DNA from: a virus
Lineage: Duplodnaviria; Heunggongvirae; Uroviricota; Caudoviricetes
Strand: one strand, 5' to 3'
IMG/VR virus record: IMGVR_UViG_2671180366_000008
DNA length: 7,364 bases
In this document: in pieces, positions 1,788-7,364 of the stretch
Numbering within the stretch: the stretch's first letter is position 1
How the letters are laid out: every line of letters begins with the position of its first letter
Notes under the pieces: model-generated
Told to the model about the DNA's origin: nothing
The model's input: the letters and a program-made list of their open reading frames with translations, nothing else
Databases searched by the model: none
Position numbers and translations under genes: made by a program

Positions 1788-2531
1788 ATGACACAGACTG
1801 AATCAGCGATTCTGGCGCATGCCCGGCGGTGTGCGCCTGCGGAGTCGTGCGGCTTCGTGATAAGCACGCCGGAGGGGGAGTGGTATATCCCTTGTGTGAA
1901 TATTTCTGCAGAGCCGGAGGCGTATTTTCGTATCGCACCGGAAGACTGGCTGCGGGCAGAGATGCAGGGGGAGATTGTGGCACTGGTCCACAGTCATCCC
2001 GGTGGGCTGCCCTGGCTGAGCGAGGCTGACCGGCGGCTGCAGATAAAAAGCGCACTGCCCTGGTGGCTGGTCTGCCGGGGTGACATTCACAAATTCCGCT
2101 GTGTGCCACATCTGACAGGACGGCGCTTTGAGCACGGGGTGACGGACTGTTACACGCTGTTCCGGGATGCTTATCATCTGGCGGGGACTGAAATGCCGGA
2201 TTTTCATCGCGAGGATGACTGGTGGCGCAACGGCCAGAACCTTTACCTGGACAATATGGCGGTCACCGGCTTTTACCGGGTGCCCCTGTCCTCTGCACAG
2301 GCGGGCGATATTCTGCTGTGCTGCTTTGGTGCTTCGGTACCGAACCATGCCGCCATTTACTGCGGCAACGGTGAGCTGCTTCACCATCTGCCTGAACAAC
2401 TGAGTAAACGGGAGAGGTATTCCGAAAAATGGCAACGACGAACGCATTCAGTCTGGCGTCACCGCCACTGGCACGCATCTGCCTTCACGGGGATTTACAA
2501 CGATTTGGCCGCCGCCTCAGCCTGTATGTGA
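1788..2531 (+). CDS. K: Tail tip assembly protein gpK with JAMM/MPN metalloprotease and NlpC/P60-like domains (247 aa from ATG 1788; alternative internal start at ATG 1962)
   Basis: The frame is open from the ATG at 1788 (MTQTESAILAHARRCAPAESCGFV...), 11 nt after the L stop, and runs to the stop ending at 2531. It contains a JAMM motif, HSHPGGLPWLSEAD (H-x-H-x7-S-x2-D), with an upstream Glu in ...PEGEWY. A downstream Cys (VTDCYTLFRD) and His (ELLHHLPE) pair is consistent with an NlpC/P60-type fold. The supplied ORF 1527..2531 is the same frame extended back into L. The start is uncertain because no strong SD precedes 1788. Confidence 0.85.
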   Translation: MTQTESAILAHARRCAPAESCGFVISTPEGEWYIPCVNISAEPEAYFRIAPEDWLRAEMQGEIVALVHSHPGGLPWLSEADRRLQIKSALPWWLVCRGDIHKFRCVPHLTGRRFEHGVTDCYTLFRDAYHLAGTEMPDFHREDDWWRNGQNLYLDNMAVTGFYRVPLSSAQAGDILLCCFGASVPNHAAIYCGNGELLHHLPEQLSKRERYSEKWQRRTHSVWRHRHWHASAFTGIYNDLAAASACM

Positions 2532-3109
2532 ACACGGCAGCGGAAGCCATTCGCGCCCTGTCGATGCAGATGCCGGGCTTTCGCCGTCAGATGAACGAAG
2601 GCTGGTACCAGATACGTATTGCCGGTTATGACACGGCACCGGAGGCGGTGTACGCCCGTCTTCACGAACAGCTGGGTGAGGGAACGGTCATCCACATTGT
2701 GCCGCGACTGGCCGGGGCCGGAAAGGGTGGACTGCAGATTGTGCTGGGGGCGGCAGCCATCGTGGGCTCTTTCTTCACTGCCGGGGCATCAATGGCGTTA
2801 TGGGGTTCAGCCCTGGCAGCCGGTGGTTTTTCTGCCACCACGATGCTGTTTTCACTTGGAGCCAGCATGATTCTGGGCGGTGTGGCCCAGATGCTGGCCC
2901 CGAAGGCAAAAACACCGGATTACCGCGCAACGGATAACGGCAGACAGAACACGTACTTTTCCTCACTGGATAACATGATTGCCCAGGGGAACCCGATGCC
3001 GGTGCCTTACGGGGAAATGCTGGTTGGCTCCCGCCGTATATCCCAGGACATCAGCACCCGTGATGAAGGCGGGGGCGGAAAGGTCGTGGTTATCGGGCGG
3101 CAGGGGTAA
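2429..3109 (+). CDS. I: Tail tip assembly protein gpI (226 aa)
   Basis: 226-aa ORF (MATTNAFSLASPPLARICLHGDLQRFGRRL...) starting 103 nt inside the 3' end of K in a different frame. A purine-rich SD-like GGGAGAGG lies about 11 nt upstream of the ATG. The C-terminal half is hydrophobic and Gly/Ala-rich (GAAAIVGSFFTAGASMALWGSALAAGGF...), as in lambda gpI. The K/I overlap length matches my recollection of the lambda arrangement. Confidence 0.85.
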   Translation: MATTNAFSLASPPLARICLHGDLQRFGRRLSLYVNTAAEAIRALSMQMPGFRRQMNEGWYQIRIAGYDTAPEAVYARLHEQLGEGTVIHIVPRLAGAGKGGLQIVLGAAAIVGSFFTAGASMALWGSALAAGGFSATTMLFSLGASMILGGVAQMLAPKAKTPDYRATDNGRQNTYFSSLDNMIAQGNPMPVPYGEMLVGSRRISQDISTRDEGGGGKVVVIGRQG

Positions 3110-3155
3110 AAAGAATAAAAAAATCCCGCAGTGATCGCGGACAGGAACTGCGGGA
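3110..3155 (-). terminator. Putative rho-independent terminator oriented for minus-strand transcription
   Basis: An 8-bp inverted repeat, TCCCGCAG (3124-3131) and CTGCGGGA (3148-3155), flanks a 16-nt loop. It is immediately preceded on the + strand by the A-tract AAAGAATAAAAAAA (3110-3123), which reads as a hairpin followed by a T-tract on the minus strand. It sits directly after the I stop codon. Confidence 0.5.
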
Positions 3156-3319
3156 GAGTTACGAAGATTAAGTGTAAGGAATTATTCTTATATCACGACA
3201 AAAAAATTAACGCAGAGAAATTATACGCGCCACAGTCAGTTTGTGAAAATGTGAAGATATTCAGAATTTTTATGCCATTACCGGTTTTAACCAACAGGAT
3301 TATCGGTGGGCATGAAAGA

Positions 3320-3358
3320 AAACCCCGGTATCTGCTGATACCGGGGTTTCTCTTTAGC
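3320..3358. terminator. Perfect 13-bp stem-loop with T-rich flanks on both strands (bidirectional terminator-like hairpin)
   Basis: AAACCCCGGTATC (3320-3332), loop TGCT, GATACCGGGGTTT (3337-3349): a perfect inverted repeat with a GC-rich stem base. It is followed on the + strand by CTCTTT and preceded by GAAAGAA, which gives a TTCTTTC tract after the hairpin on the minus strand. Confidence 0.55.
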
Positions 3359-3452
3359 ATGGCAGAAATGTGTTTCATGCTTTTCGGGCGAAGGATATCC
3401 GACTTCTGTACGGAATGGCAAGTGGCGGTTAATTTATTCAGGGGAAGGCTGT

Positions 3453-6400
3453 ATGGGAAAAGGTGGCGGTAAGGCACACACGCCTCGTGAGGCGAAGGAT
3501 AATCTCAAATCCACGCAGATGATGAGCGTGATTGATGCGATTGGTGAGGGACCGATAGAAGGTCCGGTGAAGGGACTGCAGAGTATCCTGGTGAACAAAA
3601 CCCCGCTGACGGACACGGACGGTAATCCCGTGATACACGGTGTGACGGCGGTCTGGCGCGCCGGGGAGCAGGAGCAGACACCACCGGAAGGCTTTGAGTC
3701 CTCCGGTGCTGAAACCGGACTGGGCGTGGAAGTGACGAAGGCAAAACCGGTGACGCGCACCATTACGTCCGCGAACATTGACCGCCTGCGGGTTACCTTC
3801 GGGGTGCAGTCACTGGTGCAGACCACGTCAAAGGGCGACCGTAATCCTTCCTCTGTCCGGATTCTGATTCAGTTACAGCGTAATGGCCGCTGGGTGACGG
3901 AAAAGGATGTCACCATTAACGGCAAGACCACCTCGCAGTTCCTGGCCTCGGTGATTCTGGATAACCTGCCGCCGCGCCCGTTCAATATCCGGATGCGCAG
4001 GATGACGCCGGACAGCACCACAGACCAGCTGCAGAACAAAACGCTCTGGTCGTCATACACCGAAATCATCGATGTGAAACAGTGCTACCCGAACACGGCC
4101 ATTGTGGGGCTGCAGGTGGATGCGGAGCAGTTCGGCGGCCAGCAGATGACGGTGAACTACCATATCCGCGGTCGCATCATCCAGGTGCCGTCAAACTATG
4201 ACCCGGAAAAACGCACGTACAGTGGTATCTGGGACGGCAGTCTGAAACCGGCATACAGCAACAACCCGGCCTGGTGCCTGTGGGACATGCTGACTCACCC
4301 GCGCTACGGCATGGGAAAACGTCTGGGGGCGGCGGATGTGGACAAGTGGGCGCTGTATGCCATCGGGCAGTACTGCGACCAGACGGTCCCGGATGGTTTC
4401 GGGGGGACCGAGCCGCGGATGACCTTTAATGCGTACCTGGCACAACAGCGTAAGGCGTGGGACGTTCTCAGTGATTTCTGCTCTGCGATGCGCTGTATGC
4501 CGGTATGGAACGGCCAGACGCTGACGTTCGTTCAGGACCGTCCGTCGGATGTGGTGTGGCCGTACACCAACAGCGATGTGGTGGTGGATGATAACGGCGT
4601 GGGTTTCCGCTACAGCTTCAGTGCCCTGAAGGACCGGCACACGGCAGTGGAGGTGAATTACACCGACCCGCAGAACGGCTGGCAGACCTCCACGGAACTG
4701 GTGGAAGACCCGGAAGCCATACTGCGCTACGGACGCAACCTGCTGAAGATGGACGCGTTCGGCTGTACCAGCCGCGGTCAGGCCCACCGTGCCGGGCTGT
4801 GGGTGATAAAGACCGAACTGCTGGAAACGCAGACGGTGGATTTCACGCTCGGGTCACAGGGGCTGCGTCACACACCCGGTGACATCATTGAAATCTGTGA
4901 TAACGACTATGCCGGGACCATGACCGGCGGACGTGTCCTGTCCATCGATGCCGCCAGCCGTACCCTGACGCTGGACCGGGAGGTGACACTGCCGGAGACC
5001 GGCACGGCCACTGTTAATCTGATTAACGGCAGCGGTAAGCCGGCGAGCGTGGTCATCACCGCACACCCCGCGCCTGACCGGATACAGGTCAGCACCCTGC
5101 CGGATGGTGTGGAGGCATACGGGGTGTGGGGACTCTCCCTGCCGTCACTGCGCCGTCGCCTGTTCCGCTGTGTCTCCGTCCGGGAAAACACGGACGGCAC
5201 CTTTGCCATCACGGCGGTGCAGCACGTACCGGAAAAAGAAGCCATCGTGGATAACGGTGCCCGCTTTGAGCCGCAGTCAGGTTCCCTGAACAGCGTCATC
5301 CCACCGGCAGTGCAGCACCTGACGGTGGAGGTGAGCGCAGCTGACGGACAGTATCTGGCGCAGGCGAAATGGGACACGCCGCGGGTGGTGAAGGGTGTGC
5401 GCTTCAGTCTGCGCCTGACCAGTGGTAAGGGAACGGATGCCAGACTGGTGACCACCGCCATCACCGCAGACACGGAGCACCGTTTCAGCGGCCTGCCGTT
5501 CGGGGAATACACCCTGACGGTGCGGGCGATAAACAGCTATGGCCAGCAGGGTGAACCTGCCACCACCACATTCCGGATTGCCGCACCGGCAGCACCGTCG
5601 CGGATTGAGCTGACGCCGGGCTATTTTCAGATAACGGCGGTCCCGCGTCTTGCGGTGTATGACCCGACGGTACAGTTTGAGTTCTGGTTCTCGGAAAAGC
5701 GGATTGCGGATATCAGGCAGGTTGAAACCGCAGCCCGCTATCTTGGCTCGGCGCTGTACTGGATAGCTGCCAGTATCAATATCAAACCGGGCCATGATTA
5801 TTATTTTTACATCCGCAGTGTGAACACCGTTGGCAAATCGGCATTTGTGGAGGCTGTTGGCCAGCCGAGTGATGATGCATCCGGCTATCTGAATTTTTTC
5901 AAAGGAGAGATAGGGAAAACCCATCTGGCTCAGGAGTTGTGGACGCAGATTGATAACGGTCAGCTTGCGCCTGACCTGGCTGAAATCAGGACGTCCATTA
6001 CGGATGTCAGCAATGAAATCACGCAGACCGTCAATAAAAAACTGGAAAATCAGAGTGCGGCAATCCAGCAGATACAGAAGGTTCAGGTTGATACAAATAA
6101 TAATCTGAACAGCATGTGGGCTGTGAAGCTGCAGCAGATGCAGGACGGACGCCTTTATATTGCGGGTATCGGTGCCGGTATTGAGAATACGCCAGCAGGA
6201 ATGCAGAGTCAGGTGCTGCTGGCGGCAGACAGGATTGCGATGATTAATCCTGCGAATGGCAACACAAAGCCGATGTTTGTTGGTCAGGGCGATCAGATAT
6301 TCATGAACGAAGTGTTCCTGAAATACCTGACGGCTCCCACCATTACCAGCGGCGGTAATCCTCCGGCATTTTCCCTGACACCGGACGGAAAACTGACCGC

Positions 6401-6926
6401 TAAAAATGCAGATATCAGTGGCAGTGTGAATGCGAACGCCGGGACGCTCAACAATGTCACAATTAATGAGAACTGTCAGATTAAGGGGAAACTGTCAGCC
6501 AACCAGATTGAAGGCGATATAGTCAAAACAGTGGGTAAGGCTTTCCCCCGTGACTCCCGTGCACCGGAGCGTTGGCCATCAGGAACCATTACCGTCAGGG
6601 TTTATGACGATCAGCCGTTTAACCGGCAGATTGTTATTCCGGCGGTGGCTTTCAGCGGTGCCAGACATGAGCGGGAGAACAGCGATACTTATTCGTCATG
6701 CCGCCTGATAGTACGGAAAAACGGTGCTGAAATTTATAACCGTACCGCGCTGGATAATACGCTGATTTACAGTGGTGTTATTGATATGCCTGCTGGTCGC
6801 GGCCACATGACGCTGGAGTTTTCTGTATCAGCATGGTGGGTAAATGGCTGGTATCCCACAGCAAGTATCAGCGATTTGCTGGTTGTTGTGATGAAGAAAG
6901 CCACCGCAGGCATCAGTATCAGCTGA
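3453..6926 (+). CDS. J: Central tail fibre / host specificity protein gpJ (1157 aa)
   Basis: Uninterrupted 1157-aa ORF with the SD-like GGGGAAGG 5-6 nt upstream of the ATG. The N-terminus ([22 protein letters not shown]...) and conserved blocks ([32 protein letters not shown]; [16 protein letters not shown]; [21 protein letters not shown]; [38 protein letters not shown]) are those I recall for lambda-family J proteins. Lambda J is 1132 aa from memory. Confidence 0.96.
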
Positions 6927-6944
6927 ATTTTATAACCCATATAC

Positions 6945-6972
6945 GGGCGCCAGAAATGGCGCCTTTTTTATT
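6945..6972 (+). terminator. Rho-independent terminator downstream of J
   Basis: The stem GGCGCCA (6946-6952), loop GAAA and TGGCGCC (6957-6963) are followed directly by TTTTTTATT (6964-6972), 20 nt after the J stop. Confidence 0.75.
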
Positions 6973-6993
6973 GCAGAAAAGCGAGAGGTAATT

Positions 6994-7364
6994 ATGCGTA
7001 AAGTTTGTGCAGCCATTTTGTCCGCAGCCATCTGTCTGTCCGTATCCGGTGCGCCTGCATGGGCGTCTGAACATCAGTCCACACTGAGCGCGGGGTATCT
7101 TCATGCCCGTACGAACGCTCCCGGCAGCGATAATCTGAACGGGATTAACGTGAAATACCGTTATGAGTTTACGGACGCGCTGGGGCTGATTACGTCCTTC
7201 AGTTATGCCAATGCTGAGGATGAGCAAAAAACGCACTACAGCGATACCCGCTGGCATGAAGATTCCGTGCGTAACCGCTGGTTCAGCGTGATGGCGGGGC
7301 CGTCTGTACGCGTGAATGAATGGTTCAGCGCGTATGCGATGGTGGGTGTGGCTTACAGCCGTGT
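6994..7364 (+). CDS. lom: Lom-like outer membrane protein (Ail/Lom/PagC family), N-terminal part; the ORF continues past the window end
   Basis: ATG at 6994 is preceded by the SD-like GAGAGG (6983-6988). The translation MRKVCAAILSAAICLSVSGAPAWA/SEHQSTLSAGYLHARTNAPGSDNLNGINVKYRYEFTD... has a signal peptide with an AxA cleavage site, followed by alternating-hydrophobic beta-strand segments (WFSVMAGPSVRVNEWFSAYAMVGVAYSRV). It lies immediately downstream of J, as in lambda. Confidence 0.9.
   Translation, partial: MRKVCAAILSAAICLSVSGAPAWASEHQSTLSAGYLHARTNAPGSDNLNGINVKYRYEFTDALGLITSFSYANAEDEQKTHYSDTRWHEDSVRNRWFSVMAGPSVRVNEWFSAYAMVGVAYSR

Follow-up and report, generated by a model that had tools for sequence, protein, structure and literature searches.

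Small RNAs and morons of lambdoid prophages

Protein-coding morons of lambdoid phages include lom and bor in lambda and sodC in O157 and Gifsy-type prophages. The moron concept is reportedly that of Juhala et al. in 2000. AgvB/AsxR (RF02702, RF02703) and STnc100/PasD (RF02076) are prophage-borne, Hfq-binding short RNAs in pathogenic E. coli, and like the gene described here they are lambdoid-prophage morons with their own promoters and terminators. Those genes are located downstream of PR', Q, and stx, whereas the gene described here is located in the tail operon.

The closest described RNA is PasB of EPEC O127:H6 strain E2348/69 (NC_011601, 1466343-1466261, minus strand, 83 nt), which is encoded between E2348C_1436 and E2348C_1437 (PMC8550237, table S6). 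These two genes are annotated in RefSeq as a tail assembly protein (I) and gpJ. PasB is an Hfq-dependent RNA supported by Northern blot and RIL-seq (Pearl Mizrahi et al. 2021, PMC8550237). Its base mean of reads was 482-1082, compared with 5-15 for the flanking I and J, its log2 changes in the hfq mutant were -6.8 and -2.4 (decreases), and it was more abundant in LB (non-activating) than in DMEM (PMC8550237). PasB had 37 RIL-seq interactions, and the partners were trans targets from both the core and the accessory genome (PMC8550237). PasB has also been surveyed with a definition that used a word size of 28 and a query coverage above 75% (Zhu, Shabalina & Storz 2026, bioRxiv 10.64898/2026.05.13.724894).

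In E. coli O157:H7 Sakai, EcOnc22, EcOnc23, and EcOnc24 are homologous Hfq-CRAC peaks in Sp15, Sp14, and Sp11, respectively (Tree et al. 2014, PMC4104026, table S2). On a Northern blot EcOnc22 is an RNA of about 85 nt, and its stability is lower when Hfq is missing (PMC4104026, table S2). A 2021 review listed its targets as unknown (PMC7873438), and we found neither a seed nor validated targets for PasB or EcOnc22 in the published literature. The literature on these RNAs also yielded no statement that EcOnc22-24 and the PasB family are the same.

The junction between I and J

The window, i.e. the whole stretch of 7,364 nucleotides analysed here, carries a lambda-type tail operon in which H (C-terminal part), M, L, K, I, and J were identified by Pfam (Table 1). 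The homologues of I in RefSeq are of a shorter 582-bp form, labelled 'tail assembly protein', and the equivalent start in the window is GTG 2528. The Pfam domains of J are FNIII-A_GpJ, Ig_J, Ig_J_second, Phage-tail_3, Phage_Tail_Tip, and Ig_GpJ_C. A lom gene was seen downstream of J in the window.

The I-like ORF ends at 3109 and the J ORF starts at 3453, leaving a gap of 343 bp. The GC content of this island is 41.7%, compared with 57.5% for the rest of the window, and the lowest-GC stretch of 343 bp elsewhere in the window has a value of 0.455. The left part of the island (3110-3273) is poorer in GC (0.354) than the right part (3274-3452, 0.475). A sequence-only reading of this DNA had described an AT-rich gap of about 343 bp in a GC-rich operon with two terminator-like hairpins, and the size, the composition, and both hairpins (3125-3154 and 3320-3349) agree with our results. 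It had also given a lambda gap of about 60 bp and estimated an insert of about 280 bp. In lambda, with the end of I at 15444 and the start of J at 15505, the gap measures exactly 60 bp, and thus about 280 bp of the island is extra DNA.

The same reading had regarded the island as lying in a typical moron position and proposed a BLAST search for polymorphism at this junction. The junction is indeed polymorphic among relatives. Lambda has 60 bp between I and J, E2348/69 and Sakai have about 240 bp, the window has 343 bp, and prophages with sodC have about 850 bp. The insertions found at this junction in relatives are sodC and IS elements. An apparent new moron in one relative (L037) turned out to be an IS3-family insertion only. 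Like classical morons, the island adds DNA where two genes of a late operon meet, and it has its own predicted promoter and terminator. Classical morons are expressed from the prophage, while autonomous transcription of the kind predicted for the window has been demonstrated for its homologues. Unlike the cargo of classical morons, the cargo in the window is a predicted non-coding RNA antisense to the operon. The island consists of two modules, a left module (3110-3273) containing the minus-strand gene and a right module (3274-3452), which we call R2.

Table 1. Positions of the features at and around the I-J junction in the window
Feature	Position	Strand	Basis or content
Tail assembly gene I	2429..3109	+	Pfam Lambda_tail_I, E 6e-17; PHROG tail assembly protein
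Predicted sRNA of the PasB/EcOnc22 family, 97 nt	3117..3213	-	Covariance model and promoter/terminator
Predicted intrinsic terminator of the sRNA	3117..3154	-	Terminator scan and fold
Predicted single-stranded core of the sRNA	3163..3189	-	Family alignment and consensus fold
Predicted sigma-70 promoter	3220..3247	-	-35 TTCACA (3247-3242), 16-nt spacer, -10 TATAAT (3225-3220)
Conserved upstream block	3246..3273	-	Motif TTCTGAAnnTCTTCACATTT (-53 to -33) and A/T-rich tract
Right-hand module R2	3274..3452	.	Near-invariant, joined to different sRNA alleles
Predicted bidirectional intrinsic terminator hairpin	3320..3349	.	AAACCCCGGUAUC, loop UGCU, GAUACCGGGGUUU
J Shine-Dalgarno GGGGAAGG (3441-3448) and spacer to ATG 3453	3441..3452	+	Read from sequence
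Tail tip attachment/host specificity gene J	3453..6926	+	Six GpJ/tail-tip Pfam domains

A probable small-RNA gene on the minus strand

The promoter in the left module matches the sigma-70 consensus at 11 of 12 positions and is the top sigma-70 match of the whole 7.4-kb window. The predicted start is a purine, the G at 3213, which lies seven bases past the -10 box, and the predicted RNA reads 5'-GCGUUAAUUUUUUUGUCGUGAUAUAAGAAUAAUUCCUUACACUUAAUCUUCGUAACUCUCCCGCAG...CUGCGGGAUUUUUUU-3'. The published 5' end of PasB is 15 nt downstream of the start that would be predicted from its -10 box, and therefore the 5' end of the window RNA is uncertain by about 15 nt. The terminator consists of the stem CCCGCAG (3154-3148)/CUGCGGG (3131-3125) with 7-9 pairs, followed by an A and seven U's (3123-3117), and it ends 8 nt from the stop codon of I. 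Since the plus strand lacks a U-tract, this hairpin is expected to be a one-way terminator. Homologues found by BLAST retain the stem, and a diverged allele found by the promoter-motif search has a compensatory stem, CCCACAG/CUGUGGG.

Outside the terminator, the RNA is predicted to be largely unstructured. A consensus fold of 47 alleles gave covariation-supported structure nowhere except in the terminator, and because the weak 5' hairpins vary from allele to allele we do not claim any 5' structure. The single-stranded core contains an (ARN)3 run AAGAAUAAU (3189-3181), UUCCUUA (3181-3175), and the conserved block UUAAUCUUC (3171-3163). UUCCUUA is CU-rich and resembles an anti-Shine-Dalgarno sequence, and we infer that the core has roles in Hfq binding and as a seed. 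The (ARN)3 run is at nt 25-33 of the RNA. The chance of such a run in a shuffled RNA body is about 0.03, and at least three ARN triplets are at the same place (nt 21-35) in 43 of the 47 sampled alleles. Class II Hfq-binding sRNAs, as Schu et al. are said to have described in 2015, contact the distal face of Hfq with an ARN motif and the proximal face with the U-tail. The window sRNA has both an internal run of ARN triplets and a terminator U-tail, and may contact Hfq with them.

A scan of the whole window with Rfam 15, a check that the sequence-only reading had proposed, gave at E up to 1 only a spurious match to an archaeal snoRNA inside J. The models of AgvB/AsxR and STnc100/PasD (RF02702, RF02703, RF02076) had no match in the window at this threshold, while AgvB and STnc100 were recovered in the Sakai loci that served as controls. 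The genome matches had no annotated feature at the island among the matches listed. Rfam does not have a family for this sRNA, and thus annotation pipelines are silent on the island.

The promoter, the terminator, and the homology to PasB described below indicate that the left half of the island (3110-3273) is likely to be a self-contained minus-strand sRNA gene, and by analogy with its homologues the window allele is probably expressed.

Relation to PasB

PasB resembles the predicted window gene in its location, the I-J gap of a lambdoid prophage, and in running antisense to the tail operon. The two promoters have identical -35 and -10 hexamers, 54 of the 58 upstream positions match (4 differences), and the terminator stem and the U-tail are identical. 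The published Northern probe of PasB, AATCCCGCAGTGATCGCGGAGCT (PMC8550237), matches the window at 3122-3141. The two RNAs also share the 5' GCGUUA, the U-run, the ARN run, and the CCUU and AUCUUC blocks. They differ in the RNA body, in which only 44 of 66 positions are identical (67%; 77 of 104 for the whole RNA). The modules between the promoter and J are also different, R2 in the window and the shorter R1 in E2348/69.

We made a covariance model from 13 alleles, which were of the PasB and Sakai types only and included none of the window's group, and ran it with the filters off. It matched the window at 3213-3117 on the minus strand over the full length of the model (positions 1-92 of 92) with 60.2 bits and an E value of 1.8e-9, while the next match in the window had 11 bits. 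With the 83-nt PasB as the query, blastn gave no match in the window when the word size was 28, and lowering it to 11 gave only the 25-nt terminator, at 30% coverage. The window allele thus falls outside the definition of Zhu et al. 2026, and very probably it was not counted as PasB in that survey. The gene in the window is a homologue in the PasB family by its sequence, yet it is not PasB in the narrow sense. The 'PasB-2' (C27A) of Zhu et al. 2026 is the allele of O157 strain NE92, which carries the R2 module of the window. A full-text search of the literature with an 18-nt stretch of the window allele, in three written forms, retrieved no paper.

Relation to EcOnc22-24

In the current Sakai record, the coordinates of EcOnc22, EcOnc23, and EcOnc24 all lie within I-J gaps, and the strand is in each case antisense to the tail genes. 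The published coordinates refer to an older assembly, and we measured the offset on AgvB, which Rfam places at 1941920-1941981 and the paper at 1941783-1941835 (PMC4104026). The offset was about +135 to +146. After this correction, the EcOnc22 peak is inside a predicted promoter-terminator unit at about 2902836-2902926. The link between EcOnc22-24 and the window relies on an offset measured at 1.94 Mb applying at 2.17-2.90 Mb. Within the latter range the offset appears constant, since the spacing from peak to peak equals the spacing of the three J starts. A second anchor near 2.92 Mb, EcOnc42, was rejected, as the sole Rfam match there (STnc100) is on the opposite strand, and therefore the offset rests on AgvB.

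The Sakai allele and the window share the upstream motif, the UUAAUCUUC block, and the terminator. The Sakai allele belongs to a third group, in which the -10 box is AATAAT, the -35 box is weak, and the 5' half differs from that of the window. On the coordinates and the assembly offset, it is very likely that EcOnc22-24 belong to the same family as PasB and the window sRNA. PasB from EPEC (2021) and EcOnc22-24 from EHEC (2014) would then appear to be one locus family, which would unify two literatures.

The first option of the sequence-only reading, a locus for a small non-coding RNA that is perhaps antisense to read-through of the tail operon, is thus supported by the PasB homology and by a promoter and a terminator on the minus strand. 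The part that needs correction is its extent, as the RNA gene is confined to the left half (3110-3273). The feature is also less novel than had been assumed, because the sRNA family had already been described in 2014 and 2021 and was surveyed in 2026. What is added here is modest, namely a common, uncharacterised allele that was probably uncounted, a probable link that unites EcOnc22-24 with PasB, the modular build of the junction, and a conserved motif upstream of the promoter.

Alleles and distribution

We scanned IMG/VR with a pattern from the 3' part of the RNA and, separately, with the promoter motif, and each scan gave at least 120 loci. These loci contained at least 47 distinct sRNA alleles. 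The 5' GCGUUA, the U-run, the ARN run, CCUU or CUCC, UUAAUCUUC, and the terminator were conserved across the 47 alleles, and between these blocks the alleles varied by substitutions and indels. Because AUCUUC and the terminator were both in the first search pattern, their invariance is partly an artefact of sampling. In the promoter-motif search, 117 of 140 occurrences among the matches listed had the full pattern, and the others were mostly further alleles, including ATCTTT variants and a second tandem cassette with another terminator.

The window allele was the commonest in the IMG/VR sample, with at least 27 loci. At 99% identity or more, it was found in 633 E. coli records, including ATCC 25922. 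Of the 5426 complete E. coli genomes, 1661 (about 30%) had the island, and up to eight copies of related alleles were found in one genome. In prophages carrying sodC, the sRNA body was kept and the promoter was missing. Outside E. coli, credible copies were found only in E. albertii. Matches in Butyricicoccus, Blautia, and a Clostridia MAG had unrelated flanks and look like chance matches, while those in Parendozoicomonas, Streptomyces, and a Clostridiales MAG were on E. coli-like short contigs and were taken as contamination.

The island is a mosaic, and its left and right modules recombine independently. This mosaic structure, together with the IS and sodC insertions at the junction and the lack of any Rfam match or gene annotation, could be expected of a non-functional remnant, i.e. 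the decayed moron or recombination scar that had been considered in the sequence-only reading. In the 47 alleles the intervening sequence turns over but the promoter hexamers, the 5' end, the ARN run, UUAAUCUUC, and the terminator are kept, which would not be expected of a remnant, and neither would the occurrence of the exact allele in 633 genome records. Moreover, the homologues are abundant Hfq-bound RNAs. We consider this explanation very improbable. The alignment of the 47 alleles could serve as the seed of an Rfam family, and the gene would then no longer be read as an empty spacer or a 'hypothetical protein'.

A conserved motif upstream of the promoter

The 20-nt motif TTCTGAAnnTCTTCACATTT is kept even in groups of alleles that have another -35/-10 region and a poor -35 box. 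Using the motif alone as a query retrieved the same locus family from IMG/VR. The A/T-rich tract of the upstream block resembles an UP element, and the conservation of TTCTGAAnnTCTTCACATTT suggests that it is a regulator site or an UP element. The motif contains TCTGA-N6-TCACA, which matches the CRP core at 9 of 10 positions. Since the centre of this putative CRP site would be at -44.5, a non-canonical position, we only note it here. Sigma-54 and extended -10 readings of the conserved GTGGC were rejected, as the spacing required by either was not found.

The right-hand module and the hairpins before J

R2 was identical in 41 of the 47 sampled loci that bear its 5' anchor, whichever sRNA allele was attached to it, and 1445 of the 5426 complete E. 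coli genomes had it with an identity of at least 95%. The hairpin in R2 has a 13-bp stem and a 4-nt loop, with an A-tract before and a U-rich tract after it on both strands. Its folding energy is -32.2 kcal/mol (z -5.8 for the plus and -5.9 for the minus strand). Because it folds equally well on both strands, it is likely to be a bidirectional terminator. Natural variation in R2 is confined to 3317-3363 and includes one clean deletion of the hairpin. To the 3' side of the hairpin, there is a J leader of about 100 nt, followed by the J Shine-Dalgarno sequence.

In E2348/69, Sakai, and Stx1a/Stx2c phages, a shorter and unrelated module is found in place of R2. It contains a terminator-like hairpin on the sense strand, GGCACCC-TCCG-GGGTGCC followed by UGUUGUUUUU, and its variants include a compensatory change from C-G to U-A. 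The 60-bp spacer of lambda also has a hairpin, CCGCC-TGCG-GGCGG followed by UUUUGUCAUUU. Since both the shorter module and the lambda spacer have one, a hairpin before J would seem to be a general property of the junction, and the sRNA cassette is positioned between the stop codon of I and this hairpin.

The hairpin of R2 would also be a good terminator on the minus strand, and a match to a promoter at 9 of 12 positions (TTGCCA-18-TATCCT, 3421-3392) lies upstream of it. A second minus-strand sRNA of about 70 nt could therefore start at about 3385 and end with the hairpin at 3349-3320 and its U-rich tail, and the module is almost invariant in 1445 genomes. However, promoter matches at 9 of 12 positions occur in the window at about the rate expected by chance (7 found, 4.4 +/- 1.8 expected), the invariance leaves no signal of covariation, one natural variant deletes the hairpin, and we found no published RNA that maps to the right half. 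A second sRNA is thus quite improbable.

The same variation bears on the coding potential of the island. There are three ORFs, 3131-3472 on the plus strand (113 aa), 3193-3477 on the minus strand (94 aa), and 3287-3421 on the minus strand (44 aa), and one deposited phage record has a 'hypothetical protein' there, so the island might encode a small protein. None of the three ORFs had a match in Pfam or PHROG, and all of them cross the hairpin at 3320-3349. Natural 1-nt deletions (3319, 3350), a 5-nt loss, and a 47-nt deletion break every frame, and E2348/69 and Sakai have unrelated sequence in place of the entire right half. We regard a small protein as extremely improbable, in line with the remark in the sequence-only reading that the island has no convincing ORF.

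Proposed function

We propose that the island is an sRNA moron of the PasB family that has its own promoter and terminator and acts in trans, and we estimate the probability of this reading to be about 80%. RNA polymerase would start at about 3213 on the minus strand from the near-consensus sigma-70 promoter, antisense to the tail operon, and stop at about 3117, at the hairpin and U7, so that the RNA would be roughly 85-97 nt long. By analogy with PasB, and probably with EcOnc22-24, the RNA would be made in lysogens while the tail genes are silent. Hfq would bind and stabilise it through the 3' U-tail and probably also through the internal ARN run, and the unstructured middle part (which includes UUCCUUA and UUAAUCUUC) would pair in trans with host and prophage mRNAs. 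As this middle part differs from that of PasB and of the other alleles, the window allele probably has its own set of targets. The terminator in the right half would be read through by Q-modified polymerase in lytic growth, while in a lysogen it may insulate the sRNA promoter and J from stray transcription.

The sRNA gene is wholly within the tail operon on the opposite strand, and in all sampled relatives the locus is at exactly this junction. It is conceivable that its main function is in cis: the RNA could form a 97-bp duplex with the late mRNA at I-J and lead to cleavage by RNase III, thereby altering the I:J ratio or blocking production of the tail tip, either in its own phage or in a related phage that is induced or superinfecting. 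With up to eight copies of related alleles per genome, cross-talk between prophages would be possible. On the other hand, the RIL-seq partners of PasB are trans targets, and the prophages with sodC keep the sRNA body without the promoter. Direct translational control of J is unlikely, because the duplex would stop 240 nt short of the J start region. RNAduplex energies of the sRNA body against the translation starts of M, L, K, I, and J were all within the spread of the background, and we base no conclusion on them. We consider a main function in cis unlikely, while a cis-antisense effect during induction is possible alongside the trans mechanism, as the two are not exclusive.

Going beyond the proposed trans-acting moron, the I-J junction might hold a recombining series of 'seed-swapped' sRNAs with a fixed chassis and interchangeable middle segments, although we think that this is rather unlikely. 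The chassis would consist of the upstream motif, the 5' GCGUUA and U-run, the ARN run as the Hfq handle, UUAAUCUUC, and the terminator, and prophages would plug different targeting sequences into one expression unit, which is possibly controlled by the carbon source. Since the sRNA is perfectly antisense to an I-J junction of the same allele, allele-specific interference between co-resident or incoming lambdoid phages would also be possible. If alleles do differ in their targets, the prophage content would tune the post-transcriptional regulation of the host strain by strain. If the seeds are indeed swapped, the window allele, which is the commonest and is typical of the sampled genomes of human isolates, would be a so far uncharacterised regulator acting on host targets of its own. 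The presence of this allele in the reference strain ATCC 25922 provides an easy experimental handle.

Variation of the sRNA gene and its upstream motif

The promoter of the predicted antisense sRNA between tail genes I and J is preceded by a conserved motif (see table), within which TCTGA-N6-TCACA matches the CRP core at 9 of 10 positions and is centred at -44.5. This motif is a possible regulator site. PasB, the Hfq-dependent sRNA at the same locus and on the same strand in EPEC E2348/69, was reported to be at a higher level in LB than in DMEM (PMC8550237).

A search with the promoter motif was the only route that retrieved a more diverged sRNA allele, L145 (IMGVR_UViG_2711768049_000008). Its terminator stem is altered on both arms (CCCACAG/CUGUGGG vs CCCGCAG/CUGCGGG), and this is the sole clear compensatory change in the sRNA family among the alleles sampled. 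The same search showed that five relative loci carry the upstream motif twice, about 180 nt apart (L016, L065, L085, L027, and L050). In this tandem second cassette, the upstream motif is unchanged while the RNA body and the terminator (CUCCCG...CGGGAG) differ. Since the second cassette and the sRNA gene have ACUCCUUAAGG in common, the sequences suggest that the sRNA gene was duplicated and then diverged at the I-J junction.

Insertions, replacements and a possible loss at the I-J junction

Insertions repeatedly target the I-J junction or are tolerated there. IS3-family transposase insertions were found within the right-hand module, which comprises a hairpin and the J leader (L037:4724-5300), and in the sRNA promoter, immediately past its -35 box (L152). 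In other prophages, sodC lies antisense to the tail operon in place of the sRNA promoter (L005:596-1301; also L109, L112, L140, L141, and L084). These prophages retain the sRNA body and terminator on the same strand as sodC, about 90 nt beyond its stop codon, and thus the sRNA could arise there as a sodC 3'-UTR product.

In strain NZRM4165 (NZ_CP032791.1 2133843-2133943), the match is confined to 3341-3440 of the window and is covered by a gene annotated as encoding a tail assembly protein, which suggests that a deletion or rearrangement took out the sRNA cassette there, together with half of the hairpin. The hairpin in the lambda I-J spacer is analogous to the pre-J hairpins of E2348/69, Sakai, and the window.

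Features at the I-J junction and downstream of J
Feature	Location	Strand	Sequence	Remark
Conserved upstream motif	window 3246-3266, about -53 to -33	minus	TTCTGAAnnTCTTCACATTT	persists across differing -35/-10 regions
Terminator-like hairpin	L009:746-805 (lambda 15445-15504)	sense	CCGCC-TGCG-GGCGG then TTTTGTCATTT	within the lambda 60-bp I-J spacer
Strong terminator	within window 6945-7364, 19 nt past the J stop codon	plus	GGGCGCC-AGAA-ATGGCGCC then T6	
Putative Lom/Ail-like outer-membrane protein ORF	ATG at window 6995, extends beyond the window end	plus	MRKVCAAILSAAICLSVSGAPAWA...

Matches outside E. coli and the region downstream of J

The E. coli prophage sRNA region also occurred on short contigs labelled Parendozoicomonas, Streptomyces flavalbus, and a Clostridiales MAG, and we take these copies to be assembly contamination. 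The flanking sequences are unrelated for the matches in Butyricicoccus, Blautia, and a Clostridia MAG; these look like chance pattern matches.

The region past J in the window is the classical lom moron position, and the ORF found there, assigned by sequence inspection alone, encodes a putative Lom/Ail-like outer-membrane protein.
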